From IMG/VR virus record IMGVR_UViG_2548876948_000012: a stretch of 5,051 nt of DNA, one strand, 5' to 3'. The position numbers were made by a program, and so were the translations under genes. The notes under the pieces are model-generated. The model ran no database searches. It was not told the origin of the DNA and saw only the letters and a program-made list of their open reading frames with translations. Positions 512 through 3,580 of the stretch are shown in pieces. Origin of the DNA: a virus. Taxonomy: Duplodnaviria > Heunggongvirae > Uroviricota > Caudoviricetes. How positions within the stretch are numbered: the stretch's first letter is position 1; the number at the start of each line of letters is the position of its first letter.

Positions 512-1173
512 ATATCTACGAAAGAATTGATGGCAGCAAATACCGAAATATTTGGGTAGTTGGCGATCTGCACGGATGCTACACGAACCTGATGAAAAAA
601 CTGGAGACGATAGGATTCGACACCAAAAAAGATCTGCTTATCTCGGTGGGCGATTTGGTTGATCGCGGTACAGAGAACGTAGAATGCCTGGAATTAATCA
701 CATTCCCCTGGTTCAGAGCTGTACGTGGAAACCATGAGCAAATGATGATTGATGGCTTATCAGAGCGTGGAAACGTCAATCACTGGCTGCTTAATGGCGG
801 TGGCTGGTTCTTTAATCTCGATTACGACAAAGAAATTCTGGCTAAAGCTCTTGCCCATAAAGCAGATGAACTTCCGTTAATCATCGAACTGGTGAGTAAA
901 GGAAAAAAATATGTCATCTGCCACGCCGATTATCCTTGTGATAAATACGAGTTTGGAAAGCCAGTTGATCATCAGCAGGTAATCTGGAACCGCGAACGAA
1001 TCAGCAACTCACAAGACGGGATCGTGAAAGAAATCAAAGGCGCGGACACGTTCATCTTTGGTCATACGCCAGCAGTGAAACCACTCAAATTTGCCAACCA
1101 GATGTATATCGATACTGGCGCAGTGTTCTGCGGAAACCTCACATTGATTCAGGTACAGGGAGAAGGCGCATGA
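508..1173 (+). CDS. Serine/threonine protein phosphatase, lambda PPase (ORF221)-like metallophosphoesterase
   Basis: 221-aa ORF with the metallophosphatase motifs GDLHG, GDLVDRG and RGNHE, and near-identity across its length to lambda phosphatase as I recall it. GAGG sits 4 nt upstream of the ATG. The ATG overlaps the ninG stop (ATGA), so the lambda ninH gene between them is absent. Confidence 0.9.
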
Positions 1174-1259
1174 GACTCGAAAGCGTAGCTAAATTTCATT
1201 CGCCAAAAAGCCCGATGATGAGCGACTCACTACTGGCCACAGTTTATTGGTTTTCGTAA
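1170..1259 (+). pseudogene. Q: Remnant of lambda-type late antiterminator Q (29 codons)
   Basis: The ATG at 1170 overlaps the phosphatase stop, as in lambda. Translation [20 protein letters not shown] matches the lambda Q N-terminus as I recall it, then diverges (LLATVYWFS*) into low-GC sequence. The zinc-binding body of Q is absent. Too short to appear in the ORF track. Confidence 0.55.
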
Positions 1260-1301
1260 CTGAGTCATTTTATTATTTTATTGCAACTTTTAATCTTTTA
1301 T

Positions 1302-1352
1302 AGTGCGAAATAAATGGAGCTGGCATTCATTTCGCACTTTATGTTTTTGTTG
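1302..1352 (+). terminator. Hairpin with T-rich tail, candidate intrinsic terminator after the Q remnant
   Basis: 10-bp perfect stem AGTGCGAAAT (1302-1311) / ATTTCGCACT (1329-1338), extendable to about 14 bp with one mismatch, followed by TTATGTTTTTGTTGG. On the minus strand the flank is A-rich, so it is a weaker terminator for lpxR. Confidence 0.4.
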
Positions 1353-1384
1353 GACTTATGTTATTTTGATTGAATTCAATTCAG

Positions 1385-2344
1385 TTAAAAAAAGAAGGTG
1401 ATTGCTCCATTTATAAATGAATAGTCATCCCCTGTCTTGAATTCTGATGTTACTTTATTAAATGCTAGTGTGAAGGCTACAGGTGCATACCCAATTGTTG
1501 CGCCAACTTGATATTCATCAACAGTTTTGTTTAGCGATACTGTTGTTTGTTTCGTCTGTATTGTTTTTCCTTCGAGAGTATAGTTGCGATTGACATCTCG
1601 TCTTTCCATACCTGCAAAAATCTTGTATTTGAATCCGCTTGTATCGGACATATGCATTAAACCACGGGGAGCCAGCAGACCAAAGCCATTATCCGAATTG
1701 AAGGTTTTATCATTACCAATGGCAATGGTTGCGCCATATGCTACATATTGAAATAAGTTTCCAGTAACAGCAGAAACTTCAGGGTATAATCCAACATTAG
1801 CACCTAAAATATCCATACTTGGTGTCATGGATAGCATCCCTTTTACAGTATAACCGTAGCGATTCTCTATTTGATCATCCCATGCATGATATTTTTCTGC
1901 CCCAATAATCTCATGAGCTTTATTTTGTACTTTCTGACCGCCTGCGTCGGGGCCAACAACACCTATGTCAGTACCTAATCGATAGCGAATCCAGTCATTC
2001 GCAAGGGAGTTCCATTCAATACCAGTGTGAGTGTATGCACTAAAAGCTCTGTCTCCAGTTACAGCTGTGTTGTGTCTTTTATTACTGCCTGATGGAGAGT
2101 AAATATCTTGCGCAATATGGAGAGATAATTGGCTCGAGTCTGAGATATCGTGGCTATATCCCAGAAATAAGCCTTGTGAGTAATCATCTCTGTTTTCATG
2201 TTTATTGCCATAAATATCATTAAGTATTGGTTGAAACTTCCCTGCATCATCATTTGCTAATGATAATGCAAGGCTGTTCGCGATAGCTGAACACGTGGTA
2301 AATGACAGAGCAATAAAGACGCCAGCGATGACACTTTTTTTCAT
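1385..2344 (-). CDS. lpxR: Outer-membrane lipid A 3'-O-deacylase LpxR-like protein (beta-barrel)
   Basis: 319 aa with a signal peptide (MKKSVIAGVFIALSFTTCSAIA) and a C-terminal aromatic end (ITFFF) typical of outer-membrane barrels. With cleavage after Ala22, the mature residues are N9, D10, S34 and H122, which are the LpxR active-site positions as I recall them from the Salmonella enzyme. AAGGAAG lies about 8 nt upstream of the ATG on the minus strand. GC content looks visibly lower than in the nin genes. Confidence 0.75.
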   Translation of the reverse strand: MKKSVIAGVFIALSFTTCSAIANSLALSLANDDAGKFQPILNDIYGNKHENRDDYSQGLFLGYSHDISDSSQLSLHIAQDIYSPSGSNKRHNTAVTGDRAFSAYTHTGIEWNSLANDWIRYRLGTDIGVVGPDAGGQKVQNKAHEIIGAEKYHAWDDQIENRYGYTVKGMLSMTPSMDILGANVGLYPEVSAVTGNLFQYVAYGATIAIGNDKTFNSDNGFGLLAPRGLMHMSDTSGFKYKIFAGMERRDVNRNYTLEGKTIQTKQTTVSLNKTVDEYQVGATIGYAPVAFTLAFNKVTSEFKTGDDYSFINGAITFFF

Positions 2345-2734
2345 ATGTTATTGTCTTCCTTTTTTTTGAATGGTGCGCGTATTTTACATACATGAGTTTG
2401 TAATACAAGGTGCGTAATCAATATGATGTTTTATAATTGCGTGAGACAATTGATTTATTCGTTTTTTATTGCGGTTTTTATTATCTTTTAATGTAACGGT
2501 GTTTTTATTAAGTGTGTTTGCGTGGTGTTTTATGTTTTTTATAATTTTTATTTTATTAAATTTAAAAGCATTAGTAATGGCTATTCTATATAGCAATATA
2601 AGAACTGTTAAAAAAAAAGGGGGGCAATTACAGGTAGTTATGGATGATGAGTGAAACAGATATTGGAGAACCGGGGAATGAATGATGTCTGAGTCTTATA
2701 TATCAGAACTCCTTCGCTGTCGCTGGGGGCTCCT
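2345..2734. promoter_or_regulatory. AT-rich divergent intergenic region with repeated T-tracts, likely holding the lpxR promoter and silencing sites
   Basis: About 390 bp of very low GC between the divergent lpxR and Q-like genes. T5-T6 tracts recur (GTTTTTTATT 2461-2470, GGTTTTTATTA 2473-2483, GGTGTTTTTATTA 2498-2510, TGTTTTTTATAATTTTTATTTTATT from about 2533), consistent with intrinsically curved DNA bound by nucleoid proteins. No specific -10/-35 could be assigned with confidence. Confidence 0.4.
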
Positions 2735-2818
2735 GTGCTTATGTCGTTTCCCCGATTCGGTTTTGAACGATTACCGAATGTTGAAGAATTATGCCAAAAT
2801 ATAGAAAGGATTTACTGC

Positions 2819-3508
2819 ATGAATACCCAATATTTACAGTATGTTCGTGAGCAACTTATGGCAGCTACTGCTGACTTGAACGGAGCAACGAAAGGCCAGC
2901 TCGAAGCCTGGCAGGAGCATGCACAATTTGATACTGGTACATACAAACGAAAGAAGCCGCGCATTCTGGATGTGGTAACTGGCAAGATGATTACGCTGGA
3001 TAATACGCCGACTTCCGGTAAGCAGTCGTACGCAAAAGGTTCATCCATTGCTTTGGTCAGCCCGGTTGAATTCTCAACCTCTTCATGGCGTCGCGCGGTT
3101 TTGTCTCTCGATGAACATCAGAAAGCATGGTTGCTTTGGTGTTACAGCGAAAGCGTTCGATGGGGGCATCAGGTCACCATAACGCAATGGGCATGGAGCG
3201 AGTTTAAAGATTTGTTAAGTAACAGAAAAATTGCAGGTAAGACACTGGATCGCCTGAAGACGTTAATCTGGCTGGCTGCACAGGATGTGAAGAGCGAACT
3301 TGCAGGGCGTGAGGCCTATGAATACCAGACACTGGCATCATTGGTGGGAGTGACAACAAAAAACTGGTCCGAGACATTTACTGAACGCTGGGTTGCAATG
3401 AAGCACATTTTTCTACAGCTTGATAGTGATGCTTTATTGCTTGTGACGAGAACACGTTCAAAACAAAAGGCAGCATTTTTACAGCAAAATATTGCAAAAC
3501 TGGATTAA
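2819..3508 (+). CDS. Putative late-gene antiterminator Q, non-lambda family (QuuQ-like); possible alternative GTG start at 2735
   Basis: 229-aa ORF from ATG 2819 with AGGA 8 nt upstream; the track ORF begins at an upstream GTG (2735). It sits downstream of the nin/phosphatase block, and its 3' end is followed by a near-consensus promoter, a -10-like element and an intrinsic terminator. The family assignment is from memory of Qin-prophage QuuQ-type proteins and is unverified; no Cys4 zinc finger is present. Confidence 0.5.
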   Translation: MNTQYLQYVREQLMAATADLNGATKGQLEAWQEHAQFDTGTYKRKKPRILDVVTGKMITLDNTPTSGKQSYAKGSSIALVSPVEFSTSSWRRAVLSLDEHQKAWLLWCYSESVRWGHQVTITQWAWSEFKDLLSNRKIAGKTLDRLKTLIWLAAQDVKSELAGREAYEYQTLASLVGVTTKNWSETFTERWVAMKHIFLQLDSDALLLVTRTRSKQKAAFLQQNIAKLD

Positions 3509-3520
3509 AAGCCATATACT
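3492..3520 (+). promoter_or_regulatory. Near-consensus sigma70 promoter overlapping the 3' end of the Q-like gene (candidate late promoter PR')
   Basis: TTGCAA (3492-3497), 17-bp spacer, TATACT (3515-3520); predicted start near A3527. Downstream, TGgTATGTT (3532-3540) is an extended -10-like element at about +6 to +14, where sigma-dependent promoter-proximal pause elements lie in Q-controlled late promoters. Confidence 0.45.
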
Positions 3521-3553
3521 TCATGCAAATTTGGTATGTTGTAAAAAATGTAT

Positions 3554-3580
3554 AAACCCGCTGCCGAGTGGGTTTTTTTT
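3554..3580 (+). terminator. Rho-independent terminator (tR'-like)
   Basis: AAACCCGC-TGCCGAG-TGGGTTT hairpin (about 9 bp including one G-U, 4-nt loop) followed by eight T (3573-3580). It lies about 30-55 nt downstream of the predicted start of the promoter above. Confidence 0.7.

Follow-up and report, generated by a model that had tools for sequence, protein, structure and literature searches.

A truncated lambda-type Q gene, an inverted lpxR gene and a Q82-type late-control module in the nin-to-Q segment of a 434-like lambdoid phage

Introduction

Q proteins, the late-gene antiterminators, fall into three families that have no detectable mutual sequence similarity, Q21 (PF06530), lambda Q (PF03589) and Q82 (PF06323) (PMC9388147). 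Here, we describe a stretch of 5,051 nucleotides of Caudoviricetes DNA, taken from the IMG/VR virus record IMGVR_UViG_2548876948_000012 and hereafter referred to as the window, in which the first codons of a lambda-type Q gene are followed by an lpxR gene on the opposite strand and then by an intact Q gene of the Q82 family. The region is the known nin-to-Q segment of the lambdoid phage 434 and of its many Escherichia coli (E. coli) prophage copies. We consider it very probable that it represents a fossil recombination joint in a lambdoid genome whose late-gene switch still works. The features themselves are already annotated in GenBank and RefSeq, and are hence known. What is added here is the mapping of both junctions of the joint, the comparison with the related phage 2B8, the single origin that the copies appear to share and the conservation of the Q82-type late promoter unit.

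Results

From position 62 to 5051, the window has a nucleotide identity of 99.1% to phage 434 (OL657226.1), a classical lambdoid phage, and of 99.8% to the E. coli prophages that match it best. At least 80% of the whole window is found at one place in 429 of 5,426 complete E. coli genomes, and at least 80% of the core region 1100-2850 is found in 620 of them, O157:H7 strains included. The joint was checked in prophages sampled from these 620 genomes and in a set of 53 IMG/VR loci that carry a near-identical lpxR (95-100% protein identity). The phage 434 record already labels an 'antiterminator-like protein, N-terminal fragment' of lambda Q, LpxR, a 'YlcG-like' and a 'Q82-like' protein, terminators and a putative paQ, and RefSeq (Prokaryotic Genome Annotation Pipeline, PGAP) lists the Q stump as an incomplete antitermination pseudogene. 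The genome announcement of phage 434 (Feiss et al. 2022, PMC9119081) mentions morons in general and discusses neither the Q swap nor lpxR, and our literature search found no paper connecting phage 434 with lpxR.

Read from left to right, the lambda-like nin genes lead into the remnant of a lambda-type Q. This remnant is followed by the lpxR block [1241-2672], which sits between the cut lambda Q and a cut rusA-type gene, and then by ylcG, the intact Q gene and the late promoter unit (Table 1).

Table 1 Features of the window in order of position.
Feature	Position	Strand	Evidence and remarks
End of IS3-like insertion sequence ISEc52	1-61		Includes the stop codon of the transposase frame; abuts ninG at about codon 57
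ninG (rap), 5'-truncated by the insertion sequence end	62..511	+	Pfam PF05766, E = 3e-71, model positions 49-192 of 193; 96.4% identical to lambda; left flank of the module, lambda-like
ninI, serine/threonine phosphatase	508..1173	+	Pfam Metallophos, E = 4.5e-17; NinI in phage 434, serine/threonine protein phosphatase in RefSeq
Lambda-type Q remnant (PF03589 family), 29-codon open reading frame	1170..1259	+	Homologous part 1170-1240
Low-GC spacer downstream of lpxR	1241..1384	.	No lambda homology; starts at the left junction
Strong stem-loop 47 bases past the lpxR stop codon	1302..1338	.	- strand -20.3 kcal/mol (z = -5.1); + strand -16.4 kcal/mol (z = -2.7); inverted repeat I2
lpxR, outer-membrane lipid A 3'-O-deacylase (predicted), cargo (moron) gene	1385..2344	-	PF09982, E = 7e-40; intact, signal peptide
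AT-rich region 5' of lpxR	2345..2672	.	28% GC; separates lpxR from ylcG-Q; found only in the 434-type arrangement
Right junction of the lpxR block: vestige of the last rusA-type codons	2668..2681	+	Just 5' of the ylcG start; aligned with PhiR47_2
ylcG, 40 codons	2682..2804	+	NCBIfam NF033498, E = 7e-13, 48 bits (cut-off 30); phrog_2705
Q82-family late-gene antiterminator, intact, 229 amino acids	2819..3508	+	PF06323, E = 1.1e-91
Late promoter (pR'-like)	3492..3520	+	Consensus scan; -35 TTGCAA 3492-3497 (inside the end of Q), 17-base spacer, -10 TATACT 3515-3520
Extended -10-like element TTGGTATGTTG	3530..3541	+	In the early transcribed region; pattern T.TG.TAT..TG
Intrinsic terminator (tR'-like)	3554..3583	+	Terminator scan and fold; hairpin 3554-3575, 9-bp stem, then T8
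Membrane protein, 252 amino acids	3678-4436	+	No Pfam match; phrog_1521
DUF3927/TciB-like membrane protein, 52 amino acids	4522-4680	+	phrog_1470, category 'moron'
STnc100-like small RNA element	4691-4895	+	RF02076, sub-threshold, 41.5 bits (gathering score 47), E = 1e-6, full model length

The ninI stop codon and the start codon of the Q remnant share bases (ATGA), and the ribosome-binding site of Q is retained. Segment [513-1240] is 96.4% identical to ninI-Q of lambda. Within Q, bases 1170-1229 are identical to lambda, as are the 20 amino acid residues that they encode (20/20), and over segment [1170-1240] 69 of 71 bases are identical. In the following 70 bases, identity falls to 21/70, which is random. 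The intact Q alleles of lambda, 2B8 and E. coli 98193 continue at this point with CCACGGGC(C/T)ACGGCTTCTGAC, while the window instead reads CTACTGGCCACAGTTTATTGG. The break therefore lies between 1230 and 1241, and this left junction is illegitimate. The first-pass annotation of this DNA had placed a lambda-type Q remnant at 1170, with 20 codons of lambda type and a breakpoint near 1230, and the alignment bears out each of these points.

The open reading frame (ORF) at 1170-1259 ends after 29 codons, compared with about 207 amino acids in a full-length member of PF03589, and its nine C-terminal residues are encoded by the non-homologous low-GC (guanine plus cytosine) DNA. A Pfam profile search gave no match for this 29-codon ORF; in PHROGs, residues 1-24 fall in the Q-like family phrog_127 (E = 1e-3). 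The ORF is a gene fragment and not a member of the lambda-Q family. The same first 24 residues of lambda Q are also found in phrog_21867 (E = 3e-11), a family of short ORFs with 58 positions. There may be other truncated 5' ends of Q in phage genomes, so that the start of Q may be a recurrent point of recombination.

The GC content is 46.8% in the nin region, 27.8% in segment [1241-1384], 39.4% in lpxR, 28.0% in segment [2345-2672] and 44.9% in ylcG-Q, in agreement with the lower-GC block carrying lpxR on the opposite strand that had been noted in the first-pass annotation. The lpxR block is of foreign origin, because its GC content is 28-39%, against 45-47% in the flanking DNA, and because its own outer parts are seen in no other phage context. 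In sensitive blastn searches, segment [1236-1400] matched only 434 and 434B among 50,697 phage records, and segment [2345-2700] matched, among all phage records, only 434 and 434B apart from the rusA-ylcG edge that starts at 2673. The same searches found no hidden gene remnants in the flanks of the lpxR block.

The lpxR gene is intact and encodes a predicted lipid A deacylase. The protein matches PF09982 with 137 bits (cut-off 26) and aligns to the structure of LpxR from Salmonella (PDB-id 3FID) with E = 4e-153 over the whole mature protein, residues 24-319 corresponding to residues 2-296. In the Salmonella numbering, it keeps N9, D10, D11, H122 and E128, and T34 is replaced by serine; roles of residues in Salmonella LpxR, which include the catalytic His122 and the cation-binding Asp10 and Asp11, have been described (PMC6260217). 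The sequence is 100% identical to the LpxR proteins of phage 434 and of O157:H7 strain TT12B. For lpxR of enterohaemorrhagic E. coli (EHEC), Ogawa et al. 2018 reported that it deacylates lipid A (cited in PMC6393859) and that Ler and Pch activate it (cited in PMC6393859 and PMC9263587). According to the latter two papers, EHEC lpxR co-varies with the regulon of the LEE (locus of enterocyte effacement) and lowers phagocytosis (PMC6393859; PMC9263587). Furthermore, lpxR is associated with the LEE across strains (PMC6724679). The gene is absent from 2B8 and from lambda at the same position and it deviates in base composition, as expected of a moron.

A different lpxR allele, with 71% protein identity, was found at 835-1794 in two IMG/VR loci (L060 and L061), where it lies by tail-fibre-like genes and IS3-type transposase ORFs. 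Since this allele stands in another phage context, phages have captured lpxR at least twice and at different genome positions.

Two non-coding elements flank lpxR. On the + strand, the hairpin [1302-1338] lies 43 bases past the stop codon of the Q remnant and is followed by TTTATGTTTTTGTT, which is U-rich; on the lpxR strand, it has no clear U-tract. From its fold and this context, the hairpin appears terminator-like for rightward early transcripts, and on the - strand it is likely to form the 3' end of the lpxR transcript. On the other side, the promoter of lpxR probably lies in the AT-rich region, where the best sigma-70 match of the window is found on the - strand from 2611 to 2583 (TTAACA-17-TAGAAT, 10/12).

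The seam has a second junction, at about 2668-2673, which the first-pass annotation had missed. E. coli matches in rusA-ylcG-Q contexts start at 2668-2674 of the window (1569-1575 of the query), and phage matches start at 2673. The first-pass annotation had also missed ylcG, which lies directly 5' of Q and takes the same position in PhiR47_2 and RothD. This small gene accompanies Q genes of both the Q82 and the Q21 type. Close to the two junctions, a few bases inside each, there is a direct repeat with 11 of 12 identical bases, at 1214-1225 (GATGATGAGCGA) and 2643-2654 (GATGATGAGTGA). Repeats of this kind are expected by chance in 1.6 kb, and it is probably one of them; it could otherwise be microhomology that was used in the joining.

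The gene downstream of ylcG, proposed in the first-pass annotation as a complete Q-like gene of another family, encodes a full-length Q82-type protein. It matches PF06323 with 306.8 bits (cut-off 25) over model positions 1-216 of 220, and it belongs to phrog_304 (E = 2e-108). Since the stump comes from PF03589 and the live gene belongs to PF06323, the two Q genes represent different, analogous families. The protein is 59-87% identical to Q of other enterobacterial phages, and no chain in the Protein Data Bank resembles it by sequence. It is 100% identical to Q of the viable phage 434, which has no other Q gene, and for this reason we predict that the protein is active in antitermination at a qut site of its own.

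The promoter and terminator unit that had been attributed to this gene is real. The late unit of the window was aligned with those of four other Q82-family phages, PhiR47_2, PPompW, 606R7 and the Klebsiella phage RothD, whose Q proteins are 65-87% identical to that of the window. In the five sequences, the -35 element is invariant, the -10 element is conserved, the motif T.TG.TAT..TG is invariant and the terminator stem is covarying. A transcription start near 3527 puts the motif at about +9 to +14 and the predicted pause near +24/+25. In phage 82, RNA polymerase pauses 25 bp past the start site (PMC9191641). Segment [3530-3541] is thus a candidate sigma-70-dependent pause and Q-loading site. 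Compared with the four aligned relatives, the window has a spacer between pause element and terminator that is shorter by about 19 bases.

Two further observations concern this unit. The transcript that would run from the late promoter to the terminator [3521-3584, + strand] has a weak match to STnc240 (28 bits, gathering score 55), and it may be a 6S-like leader RNA. In addition, the CII-site consensus TTGC-N6-TTGC (TTGCAATATTTTGC) is found on the - strand at 3484-3497, where it overlaps the -35 element of the late promoter and corresponds to paQ in the 434 record. It is kept in the three aligned E. coli Q82-family phages but not in RothD. Transcripts from this site are predicted to run antisense through Q and then towards lpxR in the sense direction.

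The extent of the replaced segment could be read from phage 2B8, which like 434 is a member of the genus Alegriavirus. It shares segments [62-1237] and [3576-5051] of the window with 97-98% identity. Between these flanks, 2B8 has an intact lambda-type Q of 207 amino acids and a lambda-like late promoter region, and the homology resumes inside the terminator, at GCCGAGT...TTTTTATGC. The segment from Q codon 21-24 to the late terminator has therefore been replaced as a clean module, which spans about 1231/1241 to 3562/3576. The comparison supports the structural reading given in the first-pass annotation, namely recombination with exchange of the late-control module and a host-interaction gene brought in at the seam. 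Of the three outcomes that the annotation had named as refuting it, none was observed.

The joint is the same in every copy with a near-identical lpxR that was checked. The identical 1240/1241 joint is carried by all 53 IMG/VR loci (53/53) and likewise by the sampled E. coli prophages, and none of them has an intact long Q at 1170. An intact lambda-type Q at this position was found only where lpxR is absent, as in lambda, 2B8 and E. coli strain 98193. Since the left junction is shared by all of these copies, they appear to descend from a single recombination event.

The DNA further out is variable. The left flanks fall into two classes, a ninI-type that is homologous from 62 and a ninH-type in which homology begins at 1157-1170 and NinH ends at the start codon of Q. 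The right-hand ends of homology lie at 2809, 3541, 3947 or 5002. In two IMG/VR loci (L035 and L038), homology ends at 2809, after ylcG; in the first of these, the gene after ylcG encodes a different Q-like protein of 144 amino acids. This locus mirrors the laboratory variant 434B, whose crossover lies in ylcG, so that ylcG is a crossover point for 434B and for natural variants alike. With such varied left and right ends, the Q stump, ylcG and the terminator behave like short homology handles by which the cassette can be reshuffled.

Several features of the window lie outside the replaced module. In the source genome, ninG is interrupted by an insertion sequence at base 61/62, whose end the first-pass annotation had likewise overlooked, and the early operon upstream of this end may have been displaced or lost. 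The ninH gene, which lies between ninG and ninI in lambda (2947-3153 of the lambda locus used for comparison), is absent at 511-513; ninG and ninI overlap directly, as they do in 434 and 2B8. Some other lpxR-bearing prophages show the opposite, with ninH directly 5' of the Q stump and ninI absent. Downstream, the two membrane-protein genes follow the late terminator and precede the genes for esterase and lysis; they are common to 2B8 and thus outside the swapped module. The STnc100-like element ends in a strong terminator [4866-4884] and lies just 5' of the esterase gene, of which the window contains the start. PasD small RNAs have been described as structural relatives of STnc100 (bioRxiv 10.64898/2026.05.13.724894), and the position of the element and its neighbours, lpxR, Q and a sialate esterase, fit the PasD small RNAs of that study. 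A tRNA scan found no tRNA in the window, and no Rfam family reached its threshold inside segment [1170-3580].

Discussion

A history that fits these observations would start from an ancestor with a lambda-type Q directly after ninI, as in lambda and 2B8. Non-homologous recombination would have cut this Q after codon 20-23, and the rest of the gene, together with the lambda-type late promoter and terminator, would have been replaced by foreign DNA. The incoming DNA would have consisted of the low-GC block with lpxR on the opposite strand and of a cassette made of ylcG, a Q82-type Q, promoter, pause site and terminator, which had earlier stood behind a rusA-type gene. The joining would have taken place once, and the product would later have spread among prophages by homologous recombination in the flanks.

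As judged from gene order, the arrangement could work as follows. In a lysogen, the early promoter would be off, and transcription of lpxR would start at a promoter of its own within the AT-rich DNA upstream. LpxR would then remove the 3'-acyloxyacyl group of lipid A, making the host surface less immunostimulatory, and in LEE-positive strains the gene would be switched on by Ler and Pch. Upon induction of an intact phage, N-modified polymerase from pR would pass the nin genes, then the stump of Q and the hairpin [1302-1338], and would next cross 960 bases antisense to lpxR before reaching ylcG and Q. The Q82-type protein would load on polymerase paused about 25 bases past the late promoter, and the Q-loaded polymerase would pass the terminator into the late genes. 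Intact examples of the arrangement are phage 434 and the OkiPb01716 prophage, in which Q comes after lpxR in the rightward early operon. Since 434 forms plaques with exactly this arrangement, the latter is compatible with lytic growth.

A number of points weigh against parts of this account. Two substitutions, at 1231 and 1234, lie just inside the left junction and make the breakpoint uncertain by about 10 bases. A search of genome contigs based on lpxR yielded one Citrobacter chromosomal locus, with 73% nucleotide identity in the coding region only; it shares no flank homology with the lpxR block, and the donor was not found. Likewise, no intermediate was found, neither an lpxR-free joint of the Q stump to the rusA vestige nor an lpxR block with an intact neighbour, and for that reason the donor cannot be named and one event cannot be distinguished from two or three. 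The number of sigma-70-like sites in the window does not exceed that in shuffled sequence, so that the position of the lpxR promoter is a candidate. The AT-rich region also contains a promoter-like site on the + strand at 2398-2427, in a density of sites not above that of shuffled sequence, and ylcG-Q may have a separate promoter there. Finally, the induction half of the account cannot apply to the many defective prophage copies without pR, nor behind the insertion sequence end of this window. The TT12B prophage of O157:H7, located at the ybhC site, has bet fused directly to ninE and has no repressor, N, O or P genes.

The same difference between intact and defective copies bears on the proposal in the first-pass annotation that early rightward transcription must cross lpxR antisense. 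By gene order, this holds for intact phages such as 434 and fails where the early region is missing. In intact phages, mutual antagonism between prophage induction and lpxR expression is a plausible hypothesis, again from gene order. A stronger version would make the joint a two-way interference switch, because lpxR is convergent to the only route by which Q can be transcribed in an intact phage. Strong transcription of lpxR driven by Ler and Pch, or the H-NS/Ler nucleoprotein expected on the 28%-GC spacer, would delay or damp the synthesis of Q82 and with it late-gene expression and lysis, and N-modified early transcription would silence lipid A deacylation in lytic growth. We regard such a switch as unlikely. 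If it were true, prophage commitment would be coupled to the virulence state of the host, and, as a side consequence, K-12 lysogens of the classical phage 434 would have their lipid A converted by the phage.

The presence of two distinct junctions, at 1231-1241 and at about 2668-2673, each of which cuts a gene, could also be explained if the lpxR block were, or had once been, a self-mobile cassette, flanked by insertion sequences or otherwise transposon-like, that killed the lambda-type Q, the phage being rescued later by the Q82 module. The foreign GC content of the block would suit such an origin, as would the second lpxR allele, whose neighbours in the tail-fibre region of other viral contigs include IS3-type ORFs. 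However, no terminal inverted repeats or target duplications bracket segment [1241-2672], where the chance-like direct repeat is all that was seen, and the block contains no transposase or integrase ORF. Among the 53 IMG/VR loci and the sampled prophages, there is no genome in which the lpxR block occurs without ylcG or in which the Q stump is joined to something else. Moreover, loss of Q without a replacement would leave the phage inviable, so that the two steps would have to be nearly simultaneous. A mobile cassette is accordingly an improbable origin for the block, and we return to the non-homologous replacement of the late module as the better account.

It is slightly more doubtful still that the 29-codon ORF has been retained for a function, as a translationally coupled leader that governs the traffic of ribosomes or termination where the nin operon ends, or as a source of a small peptide from the N-terminus of Q. 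The overlap of its start codon with the ninI stop codon, the intact ribosome-binding site and the terminator-like hairpin past its end would all suit an expressed ORF; it is present in every lpxR-bearing copy examined, and the short ORFs of phrog_21867 share its first 24 residues. The copies are about 99% identical, though, so their constancy reflects recent common descent rather than selection. The ORF takes only 20 residues from Q, it has no Pfam domain, its last nine residues come from the non-homologous DNA, and the curators of both GenBank and RefSeq call it a fragment or pseudogene. That the arrangement is an assembly artefact or chimera of this window has practically no chance of being right, since nothing beyond the abrupt changes in similarity and GC content would suggest it and it is refuted by the recurrence of the same joints in the 620 complete E. 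coli genomes (as sampled), in the 53 IMG/VR contigs and in 434 and 434B, whose virion DNA was sequenced independently.

With the replacement of the late module as the preferred reading, the lpxR gene of EHEC O157:H7 and of the other sampled E. coli is the same phage-434-type cargo, fixed in a single scar that has a dead Q of the lambda type on one side and a live Q of the Q82 type on the other. The locus is a textbook example of how non-homologous Q families are exchanged as whole cassettes of Q, promoter, pause site and terminator, and of how leftover gene stumps and shared terminators provide the homology by which a cassette moves between prophages. The exchange of a Q module and the presence of cargo with foreign composition are standard lambdoid mosaicism and will not surprise a specialist. 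The value of the analysis lies mainly in cleaning up the record; the finding is real but ordinary, and only a demonstration by experiment that lipid A remodelling is coupled to prophage induction through convergent transcription across lpxR would be new.

Comparison with known systems

Phage 434 is the closest known system, with identical LpxR and Q and with the same Q stump, ylcG and terminator. The window differs from it by the IS3-like end, which replaces the 5' part of ninG, and by an extra 8 bases that follow the stop codon of the Q remnant in the alignment. The Q-pR'-tR' module of lambda and 2B8 shares with the window the position after ninI, the first 20 codons and the order of Q, late promoter, pause site and terminator, and 2B8 also shares the genes downstream from 3576. 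In contrast to these phages, the window has only 71 bases of their Q left, its working antiterminator comes from a family dissimilar in sequence to lambda Q (PMC9388147), and the stump is separated from the new module by 1.4 kb of foreign DNA.

The late module of the phage 82 type, as found in rusA-ylcG-Q prophages, has a full-length PF06323 protein with ylcG upstream, TTGCAA and TATAYT promoter elements, a TGnTAT element and a terminator, all of which are found in the window. For phage 82 itself, the comparison was made by its published pause position, and the predicted pause near +25 is the same. The difference lies in the upstream neighbour, which is rusA or ninG in those prophages and the reverse lpxR in the window.

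In the lambda qsr'-type substitution of 434B, the region of Q, late promoter and lysis genes was replaced by DNA of the cryptic prophage DLP12 (PMC9119081). In 434B, as in the window, a whole late-control module was exchanged by recombination. One crossover of 434B lies inside ylcG, at 2799-2809 of the window, and the homology to the window ends at 2799. However, 434B used homology in ylcG and left no truncated gene, while no homology underlies the joint at 1231-1241, where a stump was left behind.

As cargo, lpxR resembles bor and lom of lambda, which are examples of phage morons or lysogenic-conversion genes in the concept of Hendrix and colleagues. It is an extra gene of foreign composition that is absent in 2B8, lies between essential phage genes and encodes an outer-membrane protein useful to the lysogen. 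Like bor and lom, it would probably use its own promoter while the prophage is repressed. The positions differ, since bor and lom lie in the late region, whereas lpxR belongs to the stretch covered by the delayed-early transcript, where it stands upstream of Q and in convergent orientation. The encoded enzyme matches LpxR of Salmonella over the full length of the mature protein, its key residues included; the gene has been described as chromosomal in Salmonella, whereas here it is carried by a phage.

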